NCBI GenBank assembly: GCA_034520625.1
Contig: JAXHNI010000008.1
Span: 623,574-687,573, forward strand
From: Gammaproteobacteria bacterium
Lineage (GTDB): Bacteria > Pseudomonadota > Gammaproteobacteria > Arenicellales > JAANXG01
Direction of reading: 5' to 3'
Length of the DNA stretch: 64,000 nt
This document shows, in pieces, positions 5,745 to 64,000 of the stretch (position 1 is its first letter; every line of letters starts with the position of its first letter). Under the pieces are notes generated by a model, which saw only the letters and a list, made by a program, of their open reading frames with translations, had not been told where the DNA came from and made no database searches. The translations under genes and the position numbers were made by a program.

Positions 5745-5977
5745 TGTTGACGGGATATTGGCGTTTGTCGGGTGATGTTGCCGGGTGGCGTCGGGGCCAA
5801 TGATACCGTTCCGGTACCGACAGGCGGAAGGCGGAAGGCGGCCGATAGTGCAATGCAGCATACTATATATCTATACAAACAATATGAATCATCTATTTTG
5901 CAAATGCCCGACAATGCGTTAGTCTGCTTCCCGGACTGCCTGCATGACATAACTAGAAAGAGGTCACGACACGAACC

Positions 5978-47707: not shown

Positions 47708-48397
47708 TCAGAGGCTGATCACTTCGCCGGATGCCCGGACCGAGCCTGCAAAGGCACGGAAAAGGGCACGCTGGCCGCGTTTGTAGGGCAGGTATTCGGG
47801 ATGCCATTGCACACCGACGAGAAACCGGTGGCCCGGGTCTTCGATACCCTGGATGAACCCGTCCGAGTCCCGCGCCGATACACGAAGCCGCTCCGCCAGC
47901 TGCTCTACCGCCTGGTGGTGCAGGCTGTTCACCCGGGTGGTGCGGGTTTTCATGCATGATTCGAGGATGCTGCCGGCCACCAGGTGTGCATCCTTGATGG
48001 GAAACGCACTGTTCAGGTTCGGTGTCCGCTGCCGCAGGGGCCTTAGGTCCTGGTAGAGGGTTCCGCCCAGCACGACGTTGATGAGCTGTGCCCCGCGGCA
48101 GATGCCGAGTATCGGGACGTTGGTGTCGAGTGCCCTTTTCAGGATATCTATCTCGAAGCGGTCGCGCTCCACGTCATACTCCGCGAGTCCGTCCCCCACC
48201 GCGCCGTAGTGCGTGGGCTCGATATTGTCGCCGCCGCCGATGACAATGCCTCGTACCGGGGTCGGCGACCTGCGCCGGCCGGGGGCCAGGTAGGCGGCGC
48301 GCAAGCCGGCCAGGCGGAGCATGAATCGCGCCGCCCACCAGCTCAGCTTGAGCCGTCGGTCAGGCCCCGTGACCGCTACGTCGAACGCACGAGCCAC
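47708..48397 (-). CDS. class-I glutamine amidotransferase / peptidase C26 (gamma-glutamyl-GABA hydrolase PuuD-like)
   Basis: 229 aa with the nucleophile elbow PILGICRGAQLINVVLGGTLYQDL and the His region VGVQWHPE. Confidence 0.85.
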   Translation of the reverse strand: MARAFDVAVTGPDRRLKLSWWAARFMLRLAGLRAAYLAPGRRRSPTPVRGIVIGGGDNIEPTHYGAVGDGLAEYDVERDRFEIDILKRALDTNVPILGICRGAQLINVVLGGTLYQDLRPLRQRTPNLNSAFPIKDAHLVAGSILESCMKTRTTRVNSLHHQAVEQLAERLRVSARDSDGFIQGIEDPGHRFLVGVQWHPEYLPYKRGQRALFRAFAGSVRASGEVISL

Positions 48398-49365
48398 GAA
48401 TCACACTGCTCGATCCACCGGGTCTTGAACAGGCGGGGTCCGGCCCGATTGAGCTCCCGGCGAAAAGCCCGGCATGCCCGGGACAGCCGGTCACGGTCAT
48501 CCGCCAGGTATTCCACCTCCAGCCAGCGGCTCCAGGGCTGACGCAGGTTCCAGTCCTCCCGGTCGATATCGCAGTTGGGCAGCCGGTAGTGCAGCGCCGG
48601 GCGCGGCTTGACGCGGGGATCGTCCACGGCTTCACGGACTTTCTCCGGGGCGATATGGGCGAACAACGGCAGCATGTCCAGGCTCTTGTTGCGCGTGGGA
48701 TTCGCCTCCAGGTAGTCGTCTATCAGCTCGTCGATATCCGGCGCATAGCCGGCATCCAGAATCCGGTCGATATACAACGCGTCGAAAGTTTCGATATAGG
48801 GGGTGAACCACTTGCGGCTGGGGTCGAGCTGCTCACGATCCACCAGCCAGTCGTACAGGCAGGTATAGCTGCGCAGGTAATCCAGAATGGTCGCCGGATC
48901 CAGACCCGGCATCTCGGGATTCAGATGCAGGCCAAACGCATACCACGGGGAATGGCGAGTGCCCCGCGCACCCGCCCGCCGCAGCGCCGCAAACAGGGGC
49001 TCCAGCTCCAGAACCCGTTCCATGGGAATCGGCTCGGTGATGATCTCCCAGGGCACCACGACCTGCGCCGCGCCGGCGAGGGCATCGTCGGTCAGCCGCT
49101 CGATCTCGCTCCTGGTCCCGTCCTGCTGCGCCGTCCGCGCCAGTTCCTTCAGGTAGGCTGCATCCAGCTCCAGGATCAGATCACCCACCGTGCCGCCGGT
49201 GATCCTGTACTCGAAGCGGGTGTCGCGATGCACCGCGCCGCCCAGCTGCCCGGTGATGGTATCCAGTATCACCGGCGGGGCGAGCCCGGCGAACTCGAGC
49301 TCGACGCCGATTCGCCGCGGCCGGCCTTCGTGGTTCGTTGTCGTCGGTGGCAAAAAATCGTTCAA
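48376..49365 (-). CDS. amidoligase family protein (glutamine-synthetase-like 'Amidoligase_2')
   Basis: 329 aa. RRIGVELEFAG..., WEIITEPIP and FGLHLNPE fit my recollection of the amidoligase_2 family. It overlaps the downstream C26 gene by 22 nt. Confidence 0.7.
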   Translation of the reverse strand: MNDFLPPTTTNHEGRPRRIGVELEFAGLAPPVILDTITGQLGGAVHRDTRFEYRITGGTVGDLILELDAAYLKELARTAQQDGTRSEIERLTDDALAGAAQVVVPWEIITEPIPMERVLELEPLFAALRRAGARGTRHSPWYAFGLHLNPEMPGLDPATILDYLRSYTCLYDWLVDREQLDPSRKWFTPYIETFDALYIDRILDAGYAPDIDELIDDYLEANPTRNKSLDMLPLFAHIAPEKVREAVDDPRVKPRPALHYRLPNCDIDREDWNLRQPWSRWLEVEYLADDRDRLSRACRAFRRELNRAGPRLFKTRWIEQCDSWLVRST

Positions 49366-49490
49366 GGGACACCATCGGACGTACCGGTCCGGTCACCCGG
49401 CGCAGTGGCAGCATAAAGCGCCGCGTCCGGCCGCGGGAGTCGCGCCGGACCGGAGGTCTCCGTCCTCCCGGGCCTCCGGCGGCTTTCCGG

Positions 49491-51437
49491 CTACTTGTTT
49501 AAGCGGTTCTCGATCAGGTGATCCACCACCGTGGGGTCCGCCAGCGTACTGGTGTCACCCAGATTGTTCAGCTCGTTCTCGGCGACCTTGCGCAATATCC
49601 GGCGCATGATCTTGCCCGACCGGGTCTTCGGGAGCGCCGGCGCCCACTGCAGAAGGTTGATCTTGGCGAACGCGCCGATCTCCTTGCGTACCAGCTGGAC
49701 AAGCTCTTCCCGCAGCTCGTCGGATCCTTCCTCACCCGCCATGAGCGTCACGTATGCGTAGATGCCCTGGCCGGTAACCGGATGGGGATAGCCCACCACG
49801 GCCGCTTCTGCAACCTTCTCGTGAAGGACCAGCGCGGACTCGATTTCGGCGGTGCCCAGCCGATGCCCGGACACGTTCAACACGTCGTCCACACGCCCCG
49901 TTATCCAGTAGTAGCCGTCCTCGTCCCGACGGGCGCCGTCGCCGGTGAAGTAGTAGCCCTTGTACATCTGGAAATAGGTTTCAAAAAAGCGTTTGTGGTC
50001 GCCGTACACGGTACGCATCTGAGACGGCCACGGGAACTTGATCGCGAGGTTGCCCGCGGCCGGACTGTCCGTCAGCTCATTGCCCTGGTCATCCATCAGC
50101 ACCGGCTGGACGCCGAAGAACGGCCGGGTGGCCGACCCCGGTTTCAAGGCCGTCGCGCCGGGAACGGGTGTAATCATGTGGGCGCCGGTCTCGGTCTGCC
50201 ACCAAGTATCCACGATGGGGCAGCGCTCGTCGCCCACGACCCGGTAGTACCACTCCCAGGCCTCCGGATTGATCGGTTCGCCGACGGTGCCCAGCAGCCT
50301 GACGGATTTCCGGGAAGTTTTCTTTACCGGTTCCTCACCGGACGCCATCAGGGCGCGAATGGCCGTGGGCGCCGTATAGTAAATATTGACCTGGTGCTTG
50401 TCGCATACCTCCCAGTGGCGGGACGCCGACGGGTACGTGGGTACGCCCTCGAAGATCAGCGTGATGGCGCCGTTCGCCAGGGGACCGTAGACGATATAGG
50501 AATGTCCGGTCACCCAGCCTACGTCGGCGGTGCACCAGAACACCTCGCCATCATGATAATCGAACGTGTACTTGTGGGTCATGGCGCACTGCAGAAGGTA
50601 GCCGGCGGTGGTATGCAGGACGCCCTTGGGCTTGCCCGTGGAACCCGAGGTATAAAGAATGAACAGCGGGTCTTCGGCGTCCATCTCCTCCGCCGGACAG
50701 TCGGCGTCCGCCGAGGCCATCAGATCGTGATACCAGAAGTCGCGGCCTTCGTTCCAGGCCGCAGAGCCATCGTCGCACTGCACCACGATGGAGGTGTGCA
50801 CATTGGGACACTCCTCCAGCGCCTTGTCGGCATTGGCTTTCAACGGGGTTTTCCGCCCGCCGCGGATGCCCACGTCCGCAGTAATGACGGTCTGGCAGTC
50901 CGAATCCAGGATCCGGTCCCGCAGCGCATCCGGGGAAAAGCCGCCGAACACCACGGAATGAACGGCGCCGATGCGCGCGCAGGCGAGCATGGCGACAGCC
51001 GCCTCCGGCACCATCGGCATATAGATCGAAACCCGGTCGCCTTTGCCGACGCCCCGGGACTTCAACACGTTGGCAAACTTGCATACTTCCTGATGCAGTT
51101 CCCGGTAGGTGAGCTTTCTGTCGGTATCGGGTTCATCCCCCTCCCAGATAATCGCCGTCTGGTCGCCGCGGGAATCGAGGTGGCGATCGACACAGTTGTA
51201 GCAGACGTTCAGCTTGCCGCCTTCGAACCACTTGATATGGAGATCGTCTTCCTGGTAGCTCCAGTCCAGCACCTTGTCCCACTTCTTGTACCAATCGAGG
51301 AACTCCTCGGCCTGCTCGGCCCAGAACCCTTCGGGATCCTCGATGGAGCGCTTGTACATTCGTTCATACGCATCGGCATCGATCCATGCGTTCCGGGCAA
51401 CACTTTCAGGTACGGGATACATCTTCACTTCCGACAT
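49491..51437 (-). CDS. acs: acetyl-CoA synthetase
   Basis: 648 aa. [32 protein letters not shown] and the C-terminal [16 protein letters not shown] are classic Acs sequence. Confidence 0.95.
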
Positions 51438-51489
51438 GGCTTCCTCCTCGTCATCATTTCGACCGGCGGACTTCAGGCCGATTTCAGTT

Positions 51490-51569
51490 CAAGGGGCCGG
51501 CGTACCTGAAGCGGCCCTCGAGACGGCCCCGGGGCTGGATGATCAGTCTTCAGGTACGCCGGCCCCTTG
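51490..51569. repeat. perfect 22-bp inverted repeat with a 36-nt spacer, upstream of acs
   Basis: CAAGGGGCCGGCGTACCTGAAG at 51490-51511 is the exact reverse complement of 51548-51569. It lies 53-132 nt upstream of the acs ATG and is unrelated to the two REP families. Confidence 0.8.
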
Positions 51570-51698
51570 GAATGGCTCAAGATTCCTCGAATTTTATAGG
51601 TGGACAATTCAGTTGTCTAACCACTGGCCGGGGGGCGGCACTGAACACCTTCGAAGCCGCCGGGTCTATACTAACACCGACTTCCTCCGGGACGCGCC

Positions 51699-52124
51699 GT
51701 GAAAGACTTCAATGCACATGTACCCAGCGATATCGTGGCGGTGCTCGACGCGTCGGCGGTCCTGGAGATCACGGAGTTCCGGCTGTTCGAGCTGGCATGG
51801 CGGGAGTGGTTCGGAAGCCGCCCGGACCAGCAGCACATTGAGCGGTATTTCGCCGCCTACATGTTCGCCGACCGGGTGCCCCACTGGGTTCGCAGCTTCG
51901 CCCGGCACATACTGCAGTTGAATGCCGAGGGGCGCCTGGATCCGAAGGCTTTCGGCGTCTGGCAGCGGCTGCCCAGCAGCCGCATGCGTTTTCTCGTCAA
52001 GCTCTACTGTGCTGCATTGCTCGTACTCCTGGTGGTGTTATCCACCGCCGCCATGGACCTCGATGACCAGATAATGTCCTTCTACCGCAGCTGCTATTTC
52101 CCGCCCTGTTATACCGCAGACTGA
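51699..52124 (+). CDS. hypothetical protein with one C-terminal TM segment
   Basis: 141 aa with a GTG start. The composition is plausible and it has a TM segment (FLVKLYCAALLVLLVVLSTAAM). I recognise no family. Confidence 0.45.
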   Translation: MKDFNAHVPSDIVAVLDASAVLEITEFRLFELAWREWFGSRPDQQHIERYFAAYMFADRVPHWVRSFARHILQLNAEGRLDPKAFGVWQRLPSSRMRFLVKLYCAALLVLLVVLSTAAMDLDDQIMSFYRSCYFPPCYTAD

Positions 52125-52141
52125 ACCGTGGCCAGCGAATC

Positions 52142-52321
52142 TCAGATCAGCTCGAACACATCCACAAACAGGACCCTGAAAAAGAACAACAGGGCGATGC
52201 AGCCGAAAAGCAGACGCACCGTATCGCTGTCGCCGTTCTCATCCCGGTACGTCAGGCCGTGCCATGCGACAGCGCCCGTCACGATCAGAAACACCAGGTT
52301 CATCAGAGCCTCGTTGTCCAT
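52142..52321 (-). CDS. 59-aa small membrane protein (below the ORF-track length cutoff)
   Basis: My own translation is MDNEALMNLVFLIVTGAVAWHGLTYRDENGDSDTVRLLFGCIALLFFFRVLFVDVFELI. It has two hydrophobic segments and starts 3 nt after the TPR gene stop, in the same direction. Confidence 0.35.
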   Translation of the reverse strand: MDNEALMNLVFLIVTGAVAWHGLTYRDENGDSDTVRLLFGCIALLFFFRVLFVDVFELI

Positions 52322-52324
52322 CCG

Positions 52325-52903
52325 CTATTTCTTGTAGGTTCGCTGTTTCTCGTCCAGCTCGGGCACGCGCAGCACGCGCTGGTCCTCCGACTTTGCCAGC
52401 TCCTGCTTCAGATAGGCCAGGCGGTCCGCCACCGTGGGCGGCGGCTCGGGTTGATTGCGCAGAAAACGGATCAGCCAGTGGGGGCCTTCGGCCACCTCCT
52501 CATCGAGATCCACGGCCCTCTCGTAGTCGGCAACGGCCTGCTCATACTTTCCCATCCGGTCGAACAGGATGCCGCGATTCGCATAGGTGCCGCCAAAGTA
52601 CGGTTGCAGATCCACCGCCTGGTTGAACCAGCGCAGCGACTCGTCGTAGCGCTCGAGCTGCATCAATGTCCGGGCCTTGGCGCGTACGTAGTGCGGAGCG
52701 TCCGGTTTGGCCGCCAGGGCTTCCTCGTACTTCTCCAGGGCCCGTCGGTACCCGCCATCCTCGAAGAAAATCTCACCCTCCTGGAATGCCGTGTTGCCGG
52801 GAATTCTGTCGATCAGGAACGTGTCTGCGATGGACCAGGCGATCCAGGCCACCACCATCGCAATCGCCGTGTACTTCAGGAATCTGTAAAGTTTTTCATC
52901 CAT
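52325..52903 (-). CDS. membrane-anchored TPR-repeat protein
   Basis: Track ORF trimmed to MDEKLYRF at 52903. It has an N-terminal TM segment and three TPR-like units (YRRALEKYEEALAAKPD, YDESLRWFNQAVDLQP, YEQAVADYERAVDLD). Confidence 0.75.
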   Translation of the reverse strand: MDEKLYRFLKYTAIAMVVAWIAWSIADTFLIDRIPGNTAFQEGEIFFEDGGYRRALEKYEEALAAKPDAPHYVRAKARTLMQLERYDESLRWFNQAVDLQPYFGGTYANRGILFDRMGKYEQAVADYERAVDLDEEVAEGPHWLIRFLRNQPEPPPTVADRLAYLKQELAKSEDQRVLRVPELDEKQRTYKK

Positions 52904-53138
52904 GCGCGGGGAAACCGATGCGCGCCACATTGAAGAAGAAGGAAAACAGGAAACAGACCACCACCGCTACGAAGCGCGCCCTCTGCTTCTGCGCCGCCAG
53001 TTCGCTGGCGTCGAGCTCAGTCTTCAACTTTCTCTGTTGCCGGCGCACGCTTACTACGTAAATCAGGTTGCTGGCCGGGAGAAACAACAGCGCGGTCAGC
53101 AACAGCACCCAGAACCAGAATATTACCACGGGACTCAT
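52896..53138 (-). CDS. 80-aa two-TM membrane protein
   Basis: MSPVVIFWFWVLLLTALLFLPASNLIY...FVAVVVCFLFSFFFNV. Its stop overlaps the TPR gene start (ATGGATGA), and it lies downstream of the symporter in the same direction. Confidence 0.5.
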   Translation of the reverse strand: MSPVVIFWFWVLLLTALLFLPASNLIYVVSVRRQQRKLKTELDASELAAQKQRARFVAVVVCFLFSFFFNVARIGFPAHG

Positions 53139-53251
53139 GACGCGTTTATTGTATCAAACGTTCAGGCCTCGCCTTCGAGCCCCGAGAAAAAGGGGGAGGG
53201 TTTCCCCTCCCCCTTCGCGTCCTTCCCTGGATCACGCGATGTTTGGCGGAA

Positions 53252-55210
53252 TCAGATGTTGCCCGCTTCTTCCGCGTGATCGCCGATGTCCTCGTACAGA
53301 GCCTGCACTTCCCGCTCCGGCACGGTGGACATTTCCATCTTGTAGGCGAGGAACCACATCATGAATACGCCGAGCGCCCACCACAGCAGCTGCCACGTCC
53401 AGATGGAGGGCATGCCGAACAGCCAGGTGGTGGCGTCATTCGGGTTGCCGAAAATGGTGTTTCCGATGACGGCGCCGGGGCCGATTCCGAAGAAGAACCA
53501 CACCAGGGTGATGATCCACGCCACGGGCACCAGGCCTTTCTTGGAGTCCGGCAGTGTGGCGTGCTCCTTGAGGAAATTGTGGAACTTCATCTTGTGGTCC
53601 ATATCCGACTGGCTCTGGGTCACGGTCGATACCAGGAGTGCGATTCCCAGATTGAAGATCATGCCCCAGCCGGCCGCGTGAATGGTCCACGGCCAGCGTC
53701 CCCAGGGCATGTACTGGGAGCCGATATTCTCCGTCAGGGTCACCGCGATGATGCCCGCGGCGAGCCCCAGGGTGACGCCCTGCCGGGTCAACCAGGGGAA
53801 GTAGCACACGGCCATCAACGGCACCCACATCTGGAAGCCGTAGGCCACCGCCAGGCCGCCCAGGAGTACCAGGGCGTCGGTGGCGGTGGTGGCCACCACC
53901 AGAGCGGACAACACGATCGCCAGAACCCCTACTCTGCCCCAGAACTTCTGCTGGCCGTGGCTGGCATTCGGCAGGATGTAGTGCTTCAGCAGATCCCGAG
54001 TCAGCATACCGCCGGCCGTCGACATATAGGCGGCGCCGGTGGACTGCATTGCCGCCAGGGCGCATACCGACAACAGGCCCACGGCCCACGGTGCGGTGTC
54101 GCCCAGCAGCCAGATCAACTGCGGCACCAGGTTGCCCTGGGCTCCGGGGGAATCCATGAGATTGGACACACCCAGCGCCTGCAAACCCTGCTGCATGACC
54201 GGGTTCACCATCTCGGGATGGGCGTTCATGAACCCTTCATTGGCACCCAGCATATGGGCGCCCATGCCCTGGAATGCGGTGAACAGGAACAGGATGATGC
54301 CGATGCCGAAGCTGGACGCCCACACCTGCTGCGGCGCAAACGGCCGCGGATCAGTGTTGGAGAACGCCCACATGCTGAACGCCGGCGAGGAGTGAATACC
54401 CATCAGCGCGAACATGTAGGTCAGTATCATGATGCCGGTCCAGGCGCCCCCTGTTGCTGAAGGCCCGTTCGACACGAACTGTATGACCCCGGGTATTGCT
54501 ATGTAATGGCTGTAGCCGTCCGGTGTCCGCTTCTCGTCGAACTCCGCCAACTGGGCAAGACCGGCGTTCAGCTGGTCGAAGCCGCCGACGAACGTGATCG
54601 CAATGACGCCGAGGGCCACGATGCCGGCGGCCAGCAGAATGCACTGGAGCGTATCCACGTACGCCACCGCGCGAAGCCCGCCGGACGCCACGTAGACGAA
54701 CACCACCGCGGACAGCATCCACATACCGACGTTGACACCGAGCAGGCCGTCGGTCAGCACGTTGAACAGGAATCCCGAGGCTCGGAGCTGCAGCCCCAGA
54801 TAGGGAATCGAGAAACACAGCGCCACCAGCACCACCAGCAGGCGGATCGCATCGCCCCGGAAGTAGTGAGCCAGCATCTCTCCGGGGGTCACGAAGCCGA
54901 AGCGCTTGCCCAGCATCCATTGGCGCTTCAGGAACATGACGCCGGTGAATGGAATGGTAATGGCGTAGAACGATGCATAGGCGTACTGGAACCCGTCTAC
55001 ATAGAGAAGGCCCGGGTGACCCATGAAAGTCCAGCCGGAGAATGACGTTGCGGTTGCCGCAAGCACGAATACCCAGATCGAGAGCCTGCGCCCCGCGATG
55101 AAGTAGTCGCTCGCCGTCTTCGCCGTCATCGCGCCCCTGATACCCCAGAAGATACAGTAGGCCCAATACAGGATGACGAACATGAACAACCAGACCATTT
55201 TTGGATCCAT
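53252..55210 (-). CDS. sodium:solute symporter (SSS/SLC5) family transporter
   Basis: 652 aa with about 14 TM segments. It shows the SSS opening DYFIAGRRLSIWVFVLAATATSFSGWTFMG and the block GGLRAVAYVDTLQ. A good RBS (AAGGGGGAGAAG) is present. Confidence 0.9.
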   Translation of the reverse strand: MDPKMVWLFMFVILYWAYCIFWGIRGAMTAKTASDYFIAGRRLSIWVFVLAATATSFSGWTFMGHPGLLYVDGFQYAYASFYAITIPFTGVMFLKRQWMLGKRFGFVTPGEMLAHYFRGDAIRLLVVLVALCFSIPYLGLQLRASGFLFNVLTDGLLGVNVGMWMLSAVVFVYVASGGLRAVAYVDTLQCILLAAGIVALGVIAITFVGGFDQLNAGLAQLAEFDEKRTPDGYSHYIAIPGVIQFVSNGPSATGGAWTGIMILTYMFALMGIHSSPAFSMWAFSNTDPRPFAPQQVWASSFGIGIILFLFTAFQGMGAHMLGANEGFMNAHPEMVNPVMQQGLQALGVSNLMDSPGAQGNLVPQLIWLLGDTAPWAVGLLSVCALAAMQSTGAAYMSTAGGMLTRDLLKHYILPNASHGQQKFWGRVGVLAIVLSALVVATTATDALVLLGGLAVAYGFQMWVPLMAVCYFPWLTRQGVTLGLAAGIIAVTLTENIGSQYMPWGRWPWTIHAAGWGMIFNLGIALLVSTVTQSQSDMDHKMKFHNFLKEHATLPDSKKGLVPVAWIITLVWFFFGIGPGAVIGNTIFGNPNDATTWLFGMPSIWTWQLLWWALGVFMMWFLAYKMEMSTVPEREVQALYEDIGDHAEEAGNI

Positions 55211-55387
55211 AAAGCTTCTCCCCCTTCTTAAAGGTGCATAGCAGTCAGGTTGATTGATGGTCGGCGGACCTGGAATTCTCTGCGGCCCGCCGCGCCGTGC
55301 GCGGGGGAACGTGGAAGAGGACGAGCTTCCTCCAACGGCACCCGCACTGGTCTCAACAATCCTAAACCCAGAAACCGTTGACTTTAT

Positions 55388-55403
55388 TGCAAGCGCCGTG
55401 CCA
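55388..55403 (-). promoter_or_regulatory. sigma54 (-24/-12) promoter for the symporter operon
   Basis: The minus strand reads TGGCACGGCGCTTGCA, a full match to TGGCACG-N4-TTGCW. It lies about 180 nt upstream of the symporter ATG and about 140 nt downstream of the stop of the sigma54 enhancer-binding-protein gene. Confidence 0.7.
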
Positions 55404-55477
55404 GCTCCGGCTTTCCCGCGCCAGTCATAGGAAACAGGGAGTTACCGGGTCGCGCCGGCGATACCCGCCGGTGCAAA

Positions 55478-55529
55478 CGTTACGCAACGAAACACATGGG
55501 TGATTTCGTAACATGCTGCAATGCAGCAT
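55478..55529. promoter_or_regulatory. candidate upstream activator sites: GTTAC-N24-GTAAC dyad plus a 17-bp perfect palindrome
   Basis: cGTTAC at 55478-55483 faces GTAACa at 55508-55513, and another GTTAC lies at 55441-55445. ATGCTGCA-A-TGCAGCAT at 55513-55529 is a perfect 8-1-8 palindrome. All lie 75-140 bp upstream of the -24/-12 element. Confidence 0.35.
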
Positions 55530-55541
55530 TCATCGCCGTAG

Positions 55542-56879
55542 TCAGCGACTGTCCGAACCCTTCCGGCGCGGGATACCGAGCTTCTGGCGCCGCTCCCACA
55601 GCGTCTTGCGGCTCACGCCCAGGCGACGCGCGAGCTCCGTTTCGGTCATGTGCGGCTCGTGCTGGCGGACGAAATTACAGAAGTAGTCGTCCAGCGAATC
55701 ACTCATGTCGACTTCGGTGCCCGCTTTGGCATCAACCTTCACCGCCAGCAGACCGGGGGTGATGGTTTCACCATCGCACAGGATCACCGCACGCTCGACG
55801 GCATTCTCGAGCTCCCGCACGTTTCCCGGCCAGTGATAACTGCGAATCAAGGCCAGGGTCTGCCGGTCGAACTGAAGCGCCGGCTTGTTGAGCCGCTCGC
55901 AGGAGCGCTTCAGCAGAAAGTCGGCCAGTTTCTCGACGTCATCGCCCCGGGCCCGCAGCGGCGGCAGCTGGATTTCCATCACCCGCAGCCTGAAATACAC
56001 GTCCTCCCGGAACGCCTCAGTGCGGGTCAGATCCTCCAGGTCGCGATTGGTGGCCGCCACGACGCGTACGTTGATTTTCCGGGTGCTGTTGGATCCCACC
56101 CGGCGAACCTCTCCGTCCTGCAGCACCCGCAGCAATCCCGCCTGGGCCGTCAGGGTCAGCTCGGCGATCTCGTCGAGGAACAGCGTGCCGCCGTTTGCGG
56201 CCTCCACCAGCCCTTCACGCAGCGCCACGGCACCGGTGAACGCACCCCGCTCGTGGCCGAACAGCTCCGATTCGATCAGGTCATCGGAGATCGCACCGCA
56301 GTTCACCGCGATGATCGGCCCGTCGCTACGCGGGCTCGCTTCGTGAATCGCGCGTGCCACCAGCTCCTTGCCCGTACCCGACTCACCGAGGATCAGGACG
56401 TTGGTGTGCGTCGGCGCCACCTTGGCGATGCGACCGAAGACGTCGCGCATGACGTTGCTGTCGCCGATCATGCCGGAAACCGGATACTGCCGCCGGAGGT
56501 CGGATTTCAGGGCTTCGTTCTGCCGCTGCAGGCGGCTTTCCTTGATGATGCGATCGACCACCATCATCATTTCCTCGTGGTCGAAGGGCTTGGCGATGTA
56601 GTCCACCGCTCCTTGCCGCATGGATTCCACGGCGGACCTCACGCTGGCGTAGCTGGTCATGATCAGAACCGGGGTGCCGCCGGCCTTGGCGATCACATCC
56701 GTTCCCGGGTCGCCCGGAAGACGCAGGTCCGCGATGATCAGGTCGAACTGGGAGAGTTGATACTGTTCCGCCTCCTGGACGGACCCGGCGGTTTCGACGT
56801 CGAATCCGTGGCGGCCCAACAGGGTCGTCAGCGCCGAGCGGATCACCGCTTCATCGTCGATCACCAGTACGCTGCTCAT
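55542..56879 (-). CDS. sigma54-dependent response regulator (NtrC/CbrB-like enhancer-binding protein)
   Basis: 445 aa. It has a receiver domain (VLVIDDE...[11 protein letters not shown]), an AAA+ core ([15 protein letters not shown], plus the GAFTGA motif as GAFTGAV) and a C-terminal Fis-type HTH ([22 protein letters not shown]). Confidence 0.95.
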
Positions 56880-59845
56880 GACCGGGCCGCCGTGGACAGT
56901 CCGGATTCCGCGGAACGGGCCTCCCGAAAACGCATGCGAACCAGCGTGCCGCCGGATTCAGGACTGCTGATGTCTATGTGCCCATCGTGCTCCTTCACGA
57001 TGTTGTAGACCAGCGGCAACCCCAGGCCGGTGCCCTCGCCCGGCTCCTTGGTGGTGAAAAACGGGTCGAAGACCTTCTCGATATTGCCCGGGTCGATGCC
57101 CGATCCGAGATCCTGGACACAGATCTCCACCCATCCCGACCCGCCGCGCGTGAACACGGTAACGGGCTGCTCGTCGCCGGAGGCCTGGCAGGCATTGGTC
57201 AGCAGATTCACGAATACCTGCAGCATCTTCTGCCGAACCCCCAGTACGTAGAGGGCGGAGTCGCAGCGGTTGACGCAATCCGTGCCCCGGCCGGACCGGC
57301 TCAATCTGACCAGCTCGACCGCCTCGCCGACGCATTCGCTGATATTCACCGGCTCTTTGTTCTCCGGCTCCTGGCCGCCGTGGCTGAAACTCACCAGGGA
57401 ACGAACGATGGCGCTGATCCGCCGGGTCTGGTCGAGTATCTGGCCGACGCCACGCCTGACGCCCGGATCGTCGGTTTCATCCCGGAGGTTCTGCGCCAGG
57501 CAGGCAATCCCGGTGACCGGGTTGCCGACTTCGTGGGCAACCCCGGCCGCGAGGCGTCCCAGGGACGCGAGCCGGTCCGCGTGGGCCAGCTCCGCCTCAA
57601 GCTTGTGTTTTTCCGTGGTGTCCTCCACCAGCAGAACGGTACCGGTTGACTCCCGGACCCGTTCGGCCATCGCCACCCCCGGCACCCGACCAAGGTACGC
57701 TTTGTGCAGGTTCAACCACCGGGATTCCCCGTCCACCACGGCGTGGATCTTGGTCAGCGCCGTGGCCTCCCCCTCCAGGAACCCGTCCAGCAGATCGCAC
57801 CAGGGCTCGGGCAGCCTGCCGAGCCGGCGGCCCACGGCGTCAACCGGCGCGACGCCCGACAACGTCGACATGGCATGATTCCAGATGACGATTTCGCCCC
57901 CGGGACCCACCGAGCAGACCCCGGAGGGCAGCTTCTCCAGGACCTGGCGGTGGTAGCGCCGCAGGGAATCCAGTTCTCCCAGCAGTCCCCGCATCCGCAT
58001 CTGCGAAGTCTCCAGCCGCTCCTCGATGATCCGTATGCTGTCCGCGAACAGATTCTGGGTCTTCGAATCCATGCGAAGCTGTTGATTCACAACGCTCCGG
58101 GCCAGTTCCGGGCCGAGCAGTCCCGACAGGTTGCGTTCGATACGGTCACGCAGGCGGTGCAGGTTGGAAGGGTTGGTCTCGTCCGCCGGCAGCCCCAGGT
58201 CCTTGAGCGCCAGCTGCACTTCCTTGTGGGCCATATCATCGCCGATCAGTCGTGCCAGCTGCTCGGTGAACTCGTCGGTGGTACCGACCTCCAGCACGCC
58301 GCCCCGGGGCAGAATGGTCTCGTTGACGCATGCGCTCGCGGCGTCCGCCTCGTCGGGGGACTGCCGCGTCACCAGCGAAACCAGCACGAACAATCCGGCG
58401 TTGACCGTCAACGACCAGAAGGTCACGAAGGTCCACTTGTCCATTCCCGTGTATTCGAGCCAGGGCTGCAGCGAAATCCCTGCATTGGCGGGCGCCCCGG
58501 CATCGATCAGGGGGACAAACAACATGACGAACCAGAGCAGTGCACCGCCGGCGAGCCCGGCCAGGAAGCCGTTGCGGTTTGCGTTGTCCCAGTACAGCAC
58601 GCCGACGACCCCGGGCAGGAACTGGGCGACCGCCACAAAGGAAATGAGCCCCAGCTCCACGAGTCTCTGGTTGTGCTCCAGGGCGACATAAAACCCGTAG
58701 CCCGCCAGCACGATCACCGCGATCACAACCCGCCGGCCCCACAACAGCCAGCGATACAGGTTCAATGTGGGATCCGGAATGCTCGCGGGCAGCACGAGAT
58801 GATTCAGTGCCATGGCCGACAACGCCACGGTGGTGACGATCATCATGGCACTGGCCGCGGACACGCCGCCGAGGAGGGCGAACACGGTGAGGAGCTGGGA
58901 ACCGCTGCCCAGCGTGATCCCCAGCACGTAGTAGTCCGCATCGGCGCCCGCCGACAGGCTCTGACCGGCCCAGAGGATGAAAGGTATGGGCAGATTCAGC
59001 AGCAGCAGGAACAACGGGAACCCCCAGGCGGCAACCCGGAGGCTTCCTGGATCGATATTCTCGGTGAAAGCCATGTGGAACTGGCGCGGCAGCAGGAAGG
59101 CCGCACCGAAAGCCAGGAACAGCAGCGTAGTCCACGAGCCTTCCCGGATCGGCTGATAGAGTGATTCCAGCGCCCCGGGATTGTCCTGCAGCCATCGTTC
59201 AACACCGCTGAAGCCCCCGAGTACCCCGAACACGGCAAACAGCCCTACCGTCATCAGCGCAACGAGCTTGACCAGCGACTCGAAGGCAATCGCCACTACC
59301 AGCCCCTCGTGCTTTTCCCGGGGCGTGACGTGCCGGGCCCCGAAAAGTATCGCGAACAGTATCAACACCACGCAGAATCCGAATGCCAGAGCCTTGGGCG
59401 CCGCTTCCTGGGTCAAGACGTGAATGGACTCCGTGACAGCCCTGATCTGCAGGGCGATGTAGGGCAGCGTGCCGGCGAGCATGAACAGGGTCACCATGAT
59501 TCCCGCCGCTTGGCTGCGAAACCGGAATGCGAACAAATCTGCGAGAGACGTGAGCTGGTATTCGCGAATCAGACGCAGCAGCGGTTCCATCAGCACCGGC
59601 GTCAGTGCGAAAGCAATGGTCACGCCGAGATAGATGGTCAGGAAGGTGTAGCCCTGGCTGGCGGCGAAACCGACGCTGCCGTAATAGGTCCAGGTGGTGG
59701 CATACACGCCCAGCGACAGGACGTAGGTAAGGGGGTGGCGTGCCAGGCCCGCGGGTAGCTTGCCGTGCTCCGTCGCGTAGGCGATGAGAAAAAGCAGGCA
59801 CAAATAAAGAAATATTGCCGAGAAAAGGGCCGTCAGGCTAAACAT
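56876..59845 (-). CDS. sensor histidine kinase with an N-terminal SSS/SLC5 transporter-like domain (CbrA/CrbS-like architecture)
   Basis: 989 aa. About 13 TM segments resemble a sodium:solute symporter, followed by a PAS-like region, the HisKA H-box ([12 protein letters not shown]) and HATPase_c (N box NLLTNACQA; G boxes DLGSGI and GTGLGL). It forms an ATGA overlap with the response regulator gene. Confidence 0.9.
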
Positions 59846-60029
59846 CTTTGCGCCGGCGGCCGATCAGTGCCGCGCCCGCGATCACGGCGGCCCAGAGGAC
59901 ATAGGGGGTATACCATGGACTATTGTCCTGCGCCCATGCGAACATAACGGGCGAAGCGAACAGTACCAGGGCGACGAGCACCAGCAGCACAGTCCGCTCG
60001 ATTGTTTTATCGGGTGCCCTGTGGTCCAT
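59838..60029 (-). CDS. 63-aa two-TM membrane protein overlapping the sensor kinase start
   Basis: [63 protein letters not shown]. Its stop overlaps the kinase ATG (AAAGATGTTTAG). Its own RBS is weak. Confidence 0.5.
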   Translation of the reverse strand: MDHRAPDKTIERTVLLVLVALVLFASPVMFAWAQDNSPWYTPYVLWAAVIAGAALIGRRRKDV

Positions 60030-60246
60030 TGCATCAGAGTAGCAAAACCCGTTTCGAAACGTAACAGAATAATGGGCGCCCGTTGTCGATACATATGGCG
60101 TGCCCCGGTCAAGCTACAGTGCATGCGAGCCTGCGGCCTGGTTGAAAAGAAGGCGACCACCCCCTCCTGCCGGAAACGGTGGACGGTCCGGGATGCCTTC
60201 ATCCCGTTCAATTGAATCGGTTCTGGAGCTCCTTCGGACAACAACA

Positions 60247-60738
60247 ATGCGATACATCATCTCCCTGCTTCTGGTTCTTGCGGCGCTGTGGCTGGCGATC
60301 TCCGGCGTCTACAAGCCACCGATTCTGATCCTCGGCGCGGCGTCGGTCGCCCTGGTTGCATGGCTGAGTCTGCGGATGCATGTAGTCGGAGCCGAGCACA
60401 ACCCGGTTCTGTTTTCCTGGCGCCTGCCCCTGTACTGGGGATGGCTGGTGTGGCAGATCGTGTTGGCCAACCTGCACGTGGCGCGGCGGGTATTGAACCC
60501 GGACGGGCTGCAGCCCGCCGTCATACGGGTACCGGCGACACAGCGGACAGCCGTGGGGCGGGTAACCTATGCCAACTCGGTCACCCTGACCCCGGGAACG
60601 GTCTCCCTCGAACTGACTCCCGACACGCTGACGGTGCACGCCCTGGATGCCCATTCTGCGAACGGCCTGCGTGAAGGCGCACTGGCGCGGCGCATCAACT
60701 GGCTCGAGGGCGCGACGCACCGGGAGAAACGCTCATGA
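60247..60738 (+). CDS. mrpE: Na+/H+ antiporter (Mrp/Mnh/Pha) subunit E
   Basis: Track ORF trimmed to MRYIISLLLVLAALWLAISG at 60247. ANSVTLTPGTVSLEL is the MnhE signature block. Confidence 0.85.
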   Translation: MRYIISLLLVLAALWLAISGVYKPPILILGAASVALVAWLSLRMHVVGAEHNPVLFSWRLPLYWGWLVWQIVLANLHVARRVLNPDGLQPAVIRVPATQRTAVGRVTYANSVTLTPGTVSLELTPDTLTVHALDAHSANGLREGALARRINWLEGATHREKRS

Positions 60739-61028
60739 CGACAGTGCTGGTAATCACGGTCATGGCCGTGTTCGCCACCATGGCGATGGCCCTGGTCCGG
60801 GCGCTCAAGGGGCCGACAGTCTACGACCGAATCGTATCGGTCAACGTCTTCGGCACCAAGACGGTGCTGGTGGTGGCCCTGGTCACTTACATAACCGGCC
60901 ACGCCGATCTCATCGACGTCGCGCTGGTCTATGCCCTGATCAACTTCATCGCCGTGGTCACCGTGCTCAAGCTGGTGAAGATGCACGATCTGGCCGGAGC
61001 CGGACCCGGGGACATCACCGATGGCTGA
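60735..61028 (+). CDS. mrpF: monovalent cation/H+ antiporter subunit F
   Basis: 97 aa, 3 TM segments. LKGPTVYDRIVSVNVFGTKTV is MnhF-like. It overlaps mrpE by 4 nt. Confidence 0.85.
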   Translation: MTTVLVITVMAVFATMAMALVRALKGPTVYDRIVSVNVFGTKTVLVVALVTYITGHADLIDVALVYALINFIAVVTVLKLVKMHDLAGAGPGDITDG

Positions 61029-61374
61029 GGGGCTGCTCCAACTTTTTTCCTGGCTCTGCCTGCTGGCGGGCGGAGCGGTGGGCATTCTGGGGGGACTGGG
61101 GCTGCTCCGGTTTCCGGACTTCTATACGCGGCTGCATGCCGCGGGCATGACCGATACTCTGTGCGCGCTGCTGATCGTCACGGGCCTGGTGGTGCAGTCC
61201 GGGTTGAGCCTGTTGACGGTCAAGCTGCTGCTCATACTACTGTTCCTGCTGTTCACCGCTCCCACCGCAACCCATGCCCTGGCGCGGGCGGCCATGGTCG
61301 ACAAGGTCGAACCCAGGCGGTCCGGCGGCGGCGATGGTGACCCGGCCGGCGAGGACGCGTCATCGAATACCTGA
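61021..61374 (+). CDS. mrpG: monovalent cation/H+ antiporter subunit G
   Basis: 117 aa. GLLRFPDFYTRLHAAGMTDTL and APTATHALARAA are MnhG signature blocks. Confidence 0.85.
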   Translation: MAEGLLQLFSWLCLLAGGAVGILGGLGLLRFPDFYTRLHAAGMTDTLCALLIVTGLVVQSGLSLLTVKLLLILLFLLFTAPTATHALARAAMVDKVEPRRSGGGDGDPAGEDASSNT

Positions 61375-61391
61375 TCGACATCGGCCTGCTG

Positions 61392-61922
61392 GTGTTCCTG
61401 GTGATCGTCGCCGTCGCCATCGTGCGGGTGCGCGACCTGTTCGCCTCCGCGATGCTGTTCGCCATCTACTCGCTGCTTTCGGCGGGCCTGTTCACCGTGC
61501 TGGACGCCGGGGACGTGGCCTTGACCGAGGCCGCCGTGGGCGCCGGCATCAGCACCATCCTGATTCTGGCGGTGCTGACCCTGACCCGGCGCCATGAGCA
61601 CCCGCTGCAGAGCCACAACTCGCTGGCGCTGGCGGTGGTCCTGGTCACCGGCGCCGCGCTGATCTACGCGAGCCTGGACCTGCCTGAGTTCGGCGCCCCG
61701 GACAATCCGGCCCATATGCATGTCGCGCCTTACTACATCGAGCAGAGCTACCCCGACATGGGCGTGCCCAACATGGTGGCGGCCGTCCTGGCGAGCTACC
61801 GCTCCATCGACACCCTGGGCGAGGCCTTCGTGATCCTGACCGCCGGTCTGGGGGTCTACGCGCTGTTGTCGGTCAAGCCGCGGCGGCGCAGGCGCCGGCA
61901 TGACGAGGAGGACCAGTCGTGA
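61392..61922 (+). CDS. MnhB-related membrane protein (DUF4040-like; equivalent to the MrpA C-terminal or MrpB N-terminal module)
   Basis: 176 aa. AVGAGISTILILAVL and VAAVLASYRSIDTLGEAFVILTAG are typical of the DUF4040/MnhB-related family. The start is uncertain: GTG at 61392, or possibly further upstream. Confidence 0.75.
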   Translation: MFLVIVAVAIVRVRDLFASAMLFAIYSLLSAGLFTVLDAGDVALTEAAVGAGISTILILAVLTLTRRHEHPLQSHNSLALAVVLVTGAALIYASLDLPEFGAPDNPAHMHVAPYYIEQSYPDMGVPNMVAAVLASYRSIDTLGEAFVILTAGLGVYALLSVKPRRRRRRHDEEDQS

Positions 61923-62368
61923 GAGAGAACGGCATCCTGCGCGTCGTCGCGCGCTTCCTGATCCCCCTGATCCTGCTCTTCGGGCTGTACATCCAGTTCC
62001 ACGGCGAATACTCGCCCGGCGGCGGCTTCCAGGCCGGCGTGATGTTCGCCGCCGGCTGGATCCTGTTCGCACTGATTTACGGGCTCGACGCGGCGCTGAA
62101 GGTGGTACCGGAACGCGCCATGTACGTGCTCATGGTGCTCGGCGTGCTGCTCTACTGCACGGTCGGGCTCCTGGGCGTGATCCTGGGCGGCCGCTTCCTC
62201 GATTTCTACCCGCTCCTGCCCGGCACCCATGCCGCGCAGCAAACGGGCATCGTGACCGTGGAATTCGGCGTCGGGGTCACCGTGGCCACCGTGGTCATGC
62301 TGTTCTTCACCATGTTCGCGCGCCGCCGGCGCGAGTGGGACGATGCGCCGCCGGAGGACACGGACTGA
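61919..62368 (+). CDS. mrpB: Na+/H+ antiporter subunit B
   Basis: 149 aa. LILLFGLYIQFHGEYSPGGGFQAGVMFAAGWIL is the MnhB core motif. Confidence 0.85.
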   Translation: MRENGILRVVARFLIPLILLFGLYIQFHGEYSPGGGFQAGVMFAAGWILFALIYGLDAALKVVPERAMYVLMVLGVLLYCTVGLLGVILGGRFLDFYPLLPGTHAAQQTGIVTVEFGVGVTVATVVMLFFTMFARRRREWDDAPPEDTD

Positions 62369-62733
62369 TGGAGCTGCTGGGTTATTTCAACTACTGGGTG
62401 GTGGTCGTGCTGATGATGATCGGCTTCTATGCCGTGATCGCGCGCGGCAACATGGTCAAGAAGATCATGGGACTGAACCTGTTCCAGACCTCCGTGTTCA
62501 TCCTGTTCATCTCCGCGGGGAAAATCATCGGGGGCTCCACCCCGATCCTGCGGGACGGAGTCGAAGTGTATTCCAATCCGCTCCCCCACGTGCTCATCCT
62601 CACCGCCATCGTCGTCGGCGTGGCCACCACTGCGGTGGGCCTTGCCCTGGTGGTGCGCATCAACGAGGAGTACGGCTCCGTCCACGACGATCATATCAGC
62701 CACGAGGAAACCCTGGAGGCAGCCGAGCGCTGA
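62368..62733 (+). CDS. mrpC: cation:proton antiporter subunit C (NuoK-like)
   Basis: Starts at the ATG at 62368 (MELLGYFNYWVVVVLMMIGFYAVI...), within an artefactually extended track ORF. KKIMGLNLFQTSVFILFIS is MnhC-like. Confidence 0.9.
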   Translation: MELLGYFNYWVVVVLMMIGFYAVIARGNMVKKIMGLNLFQTSVFILFISAGKIIGGSTPILRDGVEVYSNPLPHVLILTAIVVGVATTAVGLALVVRINEEYGSVHDDHISHEETLEAAER

Positions 62734-64000
62734 TGGCCATTGCCGAGTTGATGCCCTTCTGCGTGCTGGTGCCGCTGATCGCTGCCCCGGTATGCGCGCT
62801 GCTGCCGGGCCGCGTCTGGCCCTGGGCCCTGGCCCTCGCCGCGGCCGCCGCCAGTGCCGCCATCGCCGCCCTGACACTCCCGGCGGCCATGGGCGCTCCC
62901 CTGTCCTATGCCTTCGGCAACTGGCCGCCTCCGATCGGCATCGAGTACCGCGTCGACGCCGCGAATGCTTTCGTCGCTCTACTGGTGGCCGGCATGGCGG
63001 TGGTGACGCTGCCCTGGGCGAAGACCAGCGTGGACGCCGAGGTTCCCGAGCGCCAGGGCACTTTTTACGCCCTGTTCCTGCTGGCCTTCGCCGGGCTCAT
63101 GGGCATCACCCTGACCGGCGACGCCTTCAACGTCTTCGTATTCCTCGAGATCTCGTCGCTGGCCACTTATGCCCTCATCGCCCACGGCCCGGACCGGCGC
63201 GCCCTGCTGGCCGCTTTCCGGTACCTCATTATGGGTACGGTTGGCGCGACGTTCCTGCTCATCGGCATCGGTTTTCTCTACATGATGACCGGCACTCTCA
63301 ACATGGCCGACCTGGCAGAACGCCTGCCGGCCGTACGCGAGACCAACACCGTGCGCGCCGCCCTCGCGTTCATCATCGTGGGAATGGGCCTGAAGCTCGC
63401 CCTGCTGCCGCTGCACCTGTGGCTGCCCAATGCCTATACCTACGCGCCGAACTTCATCACCGTGTTCGTGGCCGGCACTGCCACCAAAGTCGCCCTGTAC
63501 GTCATGCTGCGCTTCGTATTCACGGTGTTCGCGCCGGACTACAGCTTCGCGGTGCTGCCGCTGGCGCTGGTGCTGATGGTGCTGGCAATCGCCGGCATGT
63601 TCGCCGGCTCCTGGGTGGCCATGTTCCAGGCCAATCTCAAGCGCATGCTGGCCTACTCCTCCGTCGCCCAGGTCGGCTACATGGTGCTGGGCATCTCGCT
63701 GGTGAGCGTTACCGGCATCACCGCCGCCTTCCTTCACCTTTTCAACCACGCCCTGATGAAGGGCGCCCTGTTCATGGCGCTGGGCACCATGATCTACCGG
63801 GTCGGCTCCGCCCGCATCGAGGCCGTTCGCGGCCTGGGCCGCGTCATGCCGTGGACGCTGACCGCCTTCGCCCTGGCGGGCCTGTCCATCATCGGGGTGC
63901 CCACCACCGCCGGATTCATCAGCAAGTGGTACCTGATACTCGCCGCCATGGAGGCCGGCCACTGGTGGCTGGTCATGCTGATCGTCATTACGTCCCTGAT
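62733..64000 (+). CDS. mrpD: proton-conducting antiporter subunit D (NuoN/NuoM-like); 3' end runs off the window
   Basis: My own translation from the ATG at 62733 is MAIAELMPFCVLVPLIAAP... It continues with LHLWLPNAYTYAP, KRMLAYSSVAQVGYM and HALMKGALFMALG, which are MrpD/NuoN family blocks. There is no stop before the window end. Confidence 0.9.
   Translation, partial: MAIAELMPFCVLVPLIAAPVCALLPGRVWPWALALAAAAASAAIAALTLPAAMGAPLSYAFGNWPPPIGIEYRVDAANAFVALLVAGMAVVTLPWAKTSVDAEVPERQGTFYALFLLAFAGLMGITLTGDAFNVFVFLEISSLATYALIAHGPDRRALLAAFRYLIMGTVGATFLLIGIGFLYMMTGTLNMADLAERLPAVRETNTVRAALAFIIVGMGLKLALLPLHLWLPNAYTYAPNFITVFVAGTATKVALYVMLRFVFTVFAPDYSFAVLPLALVLMVLAIAGMFAGSWVAMFQANLKRMLAYSSVAQVGYMVLGISLVSVTGITAAFLHLFNHALMKGALFMALGTMIYRVGSARIEAVRGLGRVMPWTLTAFALAGLSIIGVPTTAGFISKWYLILAAMEAGHWWLVMLIVITSL

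Follow-up and report, generated by a model that had tools for sequence, protein, structure and literature searches.

The 64,000-nt stretch of DNA analysed here (the window), from a gammaproteobacterium of the Arenicellales lineage, carries on its minus strand the genes for a small CbrX-like membrane peptide, a transporter-type sensor kinase and a sigma-54-type response regulator, followed on the same strand by the gene for a sodium:solute symporter. The regulator and symporter genes are separated by a spacer of 331 bp, from the regulator TGA (55544–55542) to the symporter ATG (55210). Read along the minus strand, this spacer contains a palindrome (55529–55513), GTTAC (55512–55508), GTTTC (55493–55489), GTAAC (55483–55479), a GC-rich hairpin (55471–55455), a further GTAAC (55445–55441) and the −24/−12 element TGGCACGGCGCTTGCA (55403–55388). 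A first-pass annotation had described four sequence features here (the −24/−12 element, a widely spaced GTTAC/GTAAC dyad, the third pentamer and the palindrome), and all four were found where it had placed them. Its central proposal, a sigma-54 promoter for the symporter with an adjacent NtrC-type regulator and CbrB-like half-sites, is supported by the conservation of these elements and by the orthology of the regulator to CbrB of Pseudomonas.

The regulator (445 residues; 55542–56879, minus strand) consists of REC, sigma-54 AAA+ and HTH domains and is 55% identical over its full length to CbrB of Pseudomonas fildesensis, with 27 of 30 residues identical in the C-terminal HTH segment. Pfam Sigma54_activat matches it at E = 1e-68, the GAFTGA motif is visible in the alignment with CbrB, and its scores lie under the NCBIfam cutoffs for NtrC and AtoC. 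The 989-residue kinase (56876–59845, minus strand) combines an SLC5-like membrane domain at its N terminus with a PAS domain and a HisKA/HATPase kinase core (Pfam PAS, HisKA and HATPase_c), and it shares 49% identity with P. fildesensis CbrA from end to end. Overlapping the start of the kinase gene by 8 nt is an open reading frame (ORF) for a 63-residue membrane peptide (59838–60029, minus strand), 38% identical to Pseudomonas CbrX (E = 1e-10). The regulator matches, at 100% identity, a protein of a metagenome-assembled genome labelled Gammaproteobacteria bacterium. Hundreds of relatives of the regulator, at 62–70% identity, occur in uncultured Gammaproteobacteria, the taxa represented being Arenicellales, Chromatiales, Thiohalomonadaceae and Acidiferrobacterales, and also in the cultured Inmirania thermothiophila (Chromatiales). 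Outside its own clade, the best genome matches of the regulator, among the matches listed, are Pseudomonas cbrB loci, in which cbrB is followed by crcZ (Rfam CrcZ, RF01675, 234–350 bits). Gene order points the same way: in three compared loci (L088–L090) an aminotransferase gene, DUF498, DksA and GluQ-like genes and a small ORF precede the kinase and regulator, and the same DksA and GluQ-like genes lie directly upstream of cbrX at a Pseudomonas locus (L004). The protein identities, together with the dksA–gluQ order common to the relatives and Pseudomonas, identify the cluster in the window as orthologous to cbrX-cbrA-cbrB, in a bacterium outside the Pseudomonadaceae, the family to which CbrAB has been described as unique (PMC8871633).

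The −24/−12 element (55388–55403, minus strand) agrees with TGGCACG-N4-TTGCW at all specified positions, as the first-pass annotation had stated, and is the sole match to this consensus in the window even at one mismatch. Scoring with a position weight matrix (PWM), which that annotation had suggested, gave 18.6 bits on an approximate matrix, the maximum that the matrix allows and the best score in the window, against 13.1 bits for the runner-up among 128,000 positions; none of 30 shuffles reached 18.6 bits. Transcription of the symporter gene, probably dependent on RpoN, is predicted to start near 55377. The distance from the −12 C to the symporter ATG is 178 nt, and the predicted 5′ untranslated region (UTR) of about 167 nt (55211–55377, minus strand) comes close to the earlier estimate of about 165 nt.

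Upstream of this promoter, the first-pass annotation had read GTTAC-N24-GTAAC as a single dyad. The letters are as described (55479–55512) and extend to GTTACG/CGTAAC, the exact GTTACG-N22-CGTAAC dyad arising in 3 of 100 shuffles. As a binding unit, however, the long dyad does not stand, because relatives show a third subsite between its arms and the conserved core is GTTAC-N5-GTAAC. We therefore describe the region as an upstream activating sequence (UAS) with three candidate subsites. F1, TGTTAC (55508–55513, minus strand), is centred at about −133, 19 bp upstream of F2. F2 and R together form the core CbrB-type dyad GTTTC-GTTGC-GTAAC (55479–55493, minus strand), centred at about −109, in the 17-bp geometry TGTTAC-N5-GTAACA, which is that of a typical NtrC-family dimer site. 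The remark that the half-sites lie one helical turn further apart than those of CbrB was arithmetically right, but the extra spacing is a by-product of the F1–F2–R array.

Within the clade of the window, F1, F2 and R sit at about −134, −115 and −105. The window itself has TGTTAC at F1, TGTTtC at F2 and GTAACg at R. Relatives show (CA)TGTTAC, then about 13–14 nt that often include CACCC, then TGTTAC, N5 and GTAACA, with a conserved CACCC(A/G) 5 nt after F1; F1 is found at a spacing of 19–20 bp in 11 loci. The GTTTC form of F2 is common to the window and its three closest relatives (L081, L172 and L173), and from this distribution reads as a conserved variant, not as random decay. There are 25 GTTAC/GTAAC pentamers in the window, three of them inside 72 bp here, a cluster that appeared in 8 of 200 shuffles. 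Taken singly, no motif is more than moderately improbable in 64 kb; it is conservation across orthologous loci that makes the evidence strong.

Several comparisons bear on that conservation. The comparison set comprises 21 distinct loci, one of them the window, that have an orthologue of this symporter gene directly after a cbrB orthologue; many of these loci are interrelated. Relatives were collected protein by protein and with the symporter as query, a genome scan with the regulator alignment having been saturated by generic activator motifs (among the matches listed, it gave Pseudomonas-type relatives and unrelated activators only). L104, a duplicate of L103, enters none of the counts except the tally of dyad against cbrB presence.

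First, in an alignment of the spacer from seven orthologous loci, with regulators 69–96% identical, the GTTAC of F1, the GTT.C of F2, the GTAAC of R and the GG.A...TTGCA columns of the promoter are invariant, and the intervening sequence has diverged.

Second, the dyad tracks the regulator gene. GTTAC-N5-GTAAC, at up to one mismatch, is present at all 20 symporter loci with cbrB upstream as opposed to 3 of 46 without it (Fisher p = 4e-14). No cbrB was found upstream in the fetched DNA of these three exceptions, which also have a GG-N10-GC-type (sigma-54-like) site at a matching distance downstream of the dyad and appear to be members of a regulon whose regulator is encoded elsewhere in the genome.

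Third, the spacing is constrained. A GG-N10-GC site of at least 9.2 bits lies downstream of the dyad in all 21 loci with cbrB. In 13 of the 21, the dyad is centred between −107 and −112. The dyad centre and −24 are 83–88 bp apart in 13 loci, 73 bp in three and 96–98 bp in another three, with the remaining two at 119 and 148 bp, so that the main distance classes are about 12 bp, or roughly one helical turn, apart. Over the same orthologues, the −12 element and the start codon are anywhere from 86 to 233 nt apart. A nearly fixed distance between UAS and promoter, combined with a leader of variable length, indicates that UAS and promoter are held together as a unit.

Fourth, the dyad recurs at the head of the regulator's own operon. 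A scan of the 64 kb at up to one mismatch returned two hits, with 0.35 expected: the UAS described above and TGTTAC-GTTTC-GAAACG at 60051–60065 (minus strand), 22–36 nt upstream of the cbrX ATG. This second dyad lies at −36/−37 from the cbrX ATG in L081, L084, L086, L087, L091 and the Inmirania locus (L090), and at the equivalent spot in L082 and L085; the Pseudomonas locus has just a GTTAC half-site at −36 from cbrX. It overlaps the −35/spacer region of a conserved extended −10-like box, TGCTACTCT (60044–60036, minus strand; TGnTAnnnT), which ends 6 nt before the cbrX ATG and looks like an extended −10 promoter that would give a leaderless or nearly leaderless cbrX message. A dyad over the −35/spacer of the promoter of the regulator's own operon is the classic autoregulation arrangement for an NtrC-type protein. 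The candidate operator over the cbrX-cbrA promoter suggests that the regulator probably controls its own cbrX-cbrA operon, and the sign of this predicted control is likely to be repression. A 2022 review contains no description of cbrX autoregulation for Pseudomonas. The second dyad lends independent support to GTTAC-N5-GTAAC as the predicted recognition site of the CbrB-type regulator.

Divergent from cbrX, and sharing the dyad-bearing spacer with it, is an operon for an Mrp/Mnh-type multisubunit cation:proton antiporter (60100–60738, plus strand), an arrangement that is constant in the clade of the window (L081–L087 and L091); this operon could be co-regulated.

The array can be compared with the promoters at which CbrB has been studied by experiment. 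In Pseudomonas putida and Pseudomonas aeruginosa, CbrB subsites F1 (TGTTAC), R1 (GTAACA) and R2 (GTAACg) were described at the sigma-54 promoters of crcZ, crcY and PP2810, with IHF between, and a restrictive CbrB consensus could not be derived (PMC6296734). The form given in the first-pass annotation, TGTTAC...GTAACA with about N14, agrees with a published summary of CbrB sites, TGTTAC-N12-14-GTAACA-N15-19-GTAACA (PMC8871633). At three Pseudomonas loci we located the subsites at −147, −124 to −128 and −103 to −106 from the start, R2 sitting in the loop of a strong cbrB terminator. The locus in the window resembles PcrcZ, PcrcY and PP2810 in having an orthologous regulator, TGTTAC/GTAACA hexamers and a GG-N10-GC promoter. 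It resembles PcrcZ further in that the promoter lies immediately downstream of cbrB on the same strand and in that the promoter-proximal GTAAC is at about −105 in the same orientation. As at the Pseudomonas CbrB promoters, an IHF-type element, here a weak match, may lie between UAS and promoter. The two systems differ in product, a symporter mRNA here and the small RNA (sRNA) CrcZ in Pseudomonas; in the UAS, which in the window has a conserved palindrome upstream of F1 and no embedded strong cbrB terminator; and in host, which here is outside the Pseudomonadaceae.

The third pentamer, GTTAC on the plus strand at 55441–55445, is present as the first-pass annotation had reported, but it is better read as part of an IHF-like site than as an activator half-site. 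The IHF-like element AAACAGGGAGTTA (55432–55444, plus strand), centred at about −61, overlaps the pentamer and differs from the consensus WATCAANNNNTTR at two positions. The pentamer is kept in the closest relatives only. L172 has a perfect match to WATCAANNNNTTR at the same offset, 34–36 nt after R, though its pentamer is CTAAC, and we read the third pentamer as IHF-like because this locus keeps the IHF consensus without the pentamer. L081, L092, L103 and L084 have one-mismatch IHF matches 34–36 nt after R. We had also considered the third GTAAC as an R2-type CbrB subsite and dropped that assignment, the IHF-like motif being better conserved than the pentamer. The GC-rich hairpin CCGGCG-GGTAT-CGCCGG (55455–55471, minus strand), which separates this element from the UAS, lacks a U-tract, and its folding energy of −12.6 kcal/mol is not significant (z = −1.0); its stem is retained in L081 with a different loop.

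We therefore consider that a conserved sigma-54 promoter drives the symporter gene and is activated by the adjacent CbrB orthologue, and we put the probability of this reading at roughly 80%. In the mechanism that we propose, sigma-54 RNA polymerase would form a closed complex on TGGCAC-N5-TTGCA (55403–55388). The CbrB orthologue, once phosphorylated by the CbrA-type transporter-kinase whose gene lies just upstream, would occupy the UAS between about −100 and −135, through F2/R (TGTTtC-N5-GTAACG, at about −109) and F1 (TGTTAC, at about −133). The regulator would then oligomerize, contact the polymerase by DNA looping, perhaps assisted by the IHF-like element near −61, and open the promoter at the expense of ATP. 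Transcription from near 55377 would give a message made up of a 5′ UTR of about 167 nt, the SSF symporter sequence and, probably, the small ORFs downstream. Through the dyad copy over the cbrX-cbrA promoter, the regulator would also act on its own operon.

Several points weigh against this reading. The middle subsite, F2, is imperfect in the window (GTTTC), and the IHF-like match there is weak, with its two mismatches. The order F1-N14-F2-N5-R differs from the F1-N12-14-R1-N15-19-R2 of Pseudomonas; the published arrangement does not occur in the window, where no GTTAC is followed by a GTAAC at 14–17 nt. No terminator separates cbrB from the symporter gene, so read-through may add basal transcription and could contribute to symporter expression. 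The weights of the PWM only approximate the published consensus. Finally, the compared loci are kin to one another, so the counts overstate independence and are not fully independent observations.

An improbable alternative is that the sigma-54 promoter is real and another regulator or enhancer-binding protein uses the sites, the adjacency of cbrB being incidental. The subsite geometry, unlike the published Pseudomonas arrangement, would suit such a regulator, as would the three symporter loci that have the dyad and a GG-N10-GC-type site and lack an adjacent cbrB. Those non-adjacent loci nevertheless fit a regulon with the regulator gene elsewhere. The close association of dyad and cbrB, the recurrence of the dyad in the promoter of the regulator's own operon and a recognition helix almost the same as in CbrB, which uses TGTTAC and GTAACA subsites, all favour the CbrB orthologue as the protein that would bind here.

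It is also quite improbable that the promoter mainly yields a CrcZ-like regulatory RNA from its leader of about 170 nt, the symporter gene being transcribed by read-through or from some other promoter. The promoter does occupy the position of the Pseudomonas crcZ promoter, and the leader is long, at about 167 nt, and contains the conserved motif CAACCTGACT. However, no Rfam family, CrcZ (RF01675) included, was matched in 48000–64000 at E ≤ 1, a result on which we dropped riboswitch and CrcZ readings of the leader. A terminator scan of 54900–55900 found none, including between the promoter and the symporter ATG, and a promoter scan found no sigma-70-like promoter in the cbrB–symporter spacer. 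Outside CAACCTGACT, the leader is poorly conserved as well as variable in length. Reading it by eye, with no formal scan, we saw no clusters of CrcZ-type A-rich motifs. Least probable of all, to the point of being very hard to credit, is that the motifs are chance matches lacking function and that the symporter gene is transcribed by read-through from cbrB: the modest improbability of each motif singly and the missing terminator after cbrB would allow it, but motifs and spacing are conserved over 21 loci with diverged flanks, and the sigma-54 score lies above all shuffles.

The motif CAACCTGACT (55252–55243, minus strand) stands out in an otherwise variable leader. It is placed 16–39 nt before the symporter start codon, is kept in L081, L082, L084, L085, L172 and L173, and occurs in 8 of 22 loci with cbrB as opposed to 2 of 48 others. 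It has no match to the A-rich Crc/Hfq motif and may be a translational or sRNA target.

The palindrome beside F1 was correctly described as perfect over its 17 bp (55513–55529, strand-neutral): it reads ATGCTGCA-A-TGCAGCAT on the plus strand and ATGCTGCA-T-TGCAGCAT on the minus strand, abuts F1, is centred at about −144 and begins 12 nt past the regulator TGA. A dyad of the form TGnTGC-N3-GCAnCA is found at the orthologous position in L081, L085, L092, L103, L172 and L173, with a weaker form at the same place in L084 and L086. In the window and 173 further loci, this consensus recurs at the orthologous position only, so there is no sign of a separate regulon motif.

We slightly favour a function of the palindrome as an accessory protein-binding dyad, providing an extra contact for the activator oligomer or a site for a co-regulator, since its arm bases are conserved amid diverged flanks and it is always fused to F1; our confidence in this assignment falls just short of even. 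A somewhat less probable but still serious contender is that the palindrome folds as an RNA hairpin where the cbrB mRNA ends, stabilizing the message or weakly terminating it, with no part in the enhancer. The position directly after the stop codon would suit such a hairpin, as would a 7-bp stem of −9.4 kcal/mol (z = −2.3). One arm position, moreover, shows compensated changes: the window has C:G, L081 has A:T, and both L092 and L103 have G:C. Pairing is seen in 83% of cells, and the Pseudomonas cbrB terminator, too, overlaps CbrB sites. Of seven pairs, however, just one covaries, and the covariation score, attained by 63 of 500 shuffles, falls short of significance. The conserved arm sequence (TGnTGC/GCAnCA), always abutting F1, fits sequence-specific recognition. 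As for the proposal in the first-pass annotation that the palindrome could be the terminator stem of the regulator gene, it finds no backing at −9.4 kcal/mol: the stem is followed by GUUACGAAAU, with no U-tract, and the terminator scan was empty, in comparison with −29 kcal/mol and a U7 tract for the Pseudomonas cbrB terminator. That the palindrome has no function at all seems unlikely.

An NtrC-like reading of the palindrome, suggested by the form TGGTGCA-T-TGCACCA in L092, was rejected on the wrong order and spacing of the half-sites. The window also contains a near-copy of the palindrome at 5845–5861, which shares TGCAATGCAGCAT and is located where a Crp/Fnr-family regulator gene (4995–5744, minus strand) and an ABC permease gene (5978–6850) diverge. 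It is embedded in a larger ATAGT-N12-ACTAT dyad beside an AT-rich stretch, a different dyad context, and we treated it as apparently unrelated to the enhancer palindrome.

Two other known systems share parts of the predicted circuit. At NtrC-activated glnAp2, 17-bp dyads of the form 6-N5-6 lie about 100–140 bp upstream of the sigma-54 promoter, and NtrC autoregulates at glnL/glnAp1; the NtrC half-site is TGCACC, and its signal arrives through NtrB/PII. The system in the window has in common with it a REC-AAA+-HTH activator, 17-bp 6-N5-6 dyads and the same type of operator over a predicted sigma-70-type promoter of its own operon, and differs in its TGTTAC half-site and in an SLC5-fused kinase as the predicted source of the signal. 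In the second system, CrbR is a LuxR-type response regulator acting at sigma-70 promoters. CrbS/CrbR (MxtR/ErdR) controls acsA and actP (PMC5436829, PMC8402216). The likeness here lies in a sensor kinase with an SLC5-like transporter domain and in a link to acetate-type uptake or activation genes; unlike CrbR, the regulator in the window is an enhancer-binding protein for sigma-54, with a promoter of the −24/−12 type.

The promoter architecture itself is textbook. What appears new, relative to the literature searched and on the evidence of sequence, is that cbrX-cbrA-cbrB orthologues are widespread outside the Pseudomonadaceae, that a compact, positionally conserved 17-bp operator can be predicted for them, and that this predicted operator is found both at a protein-coding sigma-54 target in the position of crcZ and at the cbrX promoter. 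The known distribution of CbrAB would thereby widen to uncultured Gammaproteobacteria of marine and sediment origin and to cultured Inmirania, whose orthologues are clear, with cbrX kept and the dksA–gluQ order partly kept, and the 17-bp dyad could serve for predicting CbrB regulons in uncultured bacteria. In the circuit as proposed, an SLC5-fused kinase would control a free-standing SLC5-family symporter and probably its own synthesis too.

The locus also yields a concrete hypothesis for the origin of the crcZ promoter, which we offer tentatively and with more doubt than confidence. CbrXAB would be an ancient transporter-kinase system of the Gammaproteobacteria that at first acted directly on a sigma-54 promoter just downstream of cbrB, serving a solute-uptake or activation gene, and crcZ would have arisen later at this pre-existing CbrB/IHF/sigma-54 promoter. 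Within this scheme, the outputs may be the SSF symporter here and DUF4212+SSF or acs in other lineages, and TGTTAC-N5-GTAACA may be the ancestral CbrB operator, also mediating cbrX autoregulation.

The symporter (652 residues; 53252–55210, minus strand) is a member of the SSF/SLC5 family (Pfam SSF, E = 4e-26). It belongs to an uncharacterized SSF subfamily: its NCBIfam scores lie under every equivalog cutoff, and searches by family and by structure reached no closer than the superfamily level, the best solved-structure match being vSGLT at E = 4e-8. It shows 27% local identity, a distant kinship, to the transporter domain of the kinase. Downstream of it are conserved 80-residue, TPR and 59-residue ORFs and, further on, acs (acetyl-CoA synthetase), and the gene order around the symporter is conserved in relatives. 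With acs nearby, and with the gene after cbrB being acs or a DUF4212+SSF pair in other lineages, a short-chain carboxylate is a reasonable guess for the substrate, and no more. We had considered acs as a second direct target in the window and rejected it, finding neither a dyad nor a good sigma-54 site upstream of it.

Some of the compared loci have features of their own. In L088 and L090, where acs directly follows cbrB, we found no convincing dyad or sigma-54 sites. A second SLC5-type kinase of about 915 residues, convergent and beside acs (L088 9728–13166; L090 9451–12784), is accompanied there by its own small ORF and a REC-only protein, so that the acetate-activation gene is flanked by two transporter-kinase systems. 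In an uncultured member of the Cellvibrionaceae (L005, 7410–7800), TGTTAC/GTAACA subsites at −144, −125 and −103 and a sigma-54 site lie downstream of a cbrB orthologue; beyond them comes about 190 nt of A-rich sequence with a hairpin terminator at its end. This stretch looks like a CrcZ-like sRNA outside the Pseudomonadaceae, one that is missed by Rfam CrcZ at the gathering threshold. Finally, in L089 (7440–7500), four direct GTTAC repeats with no inverted partner, 9–23 bp apart (three of them about 10 bp apart), and a weak GG-N10-GC-like site lie upstream of a DUF4212+SSF (ActP-like) operon that follows cbrB.

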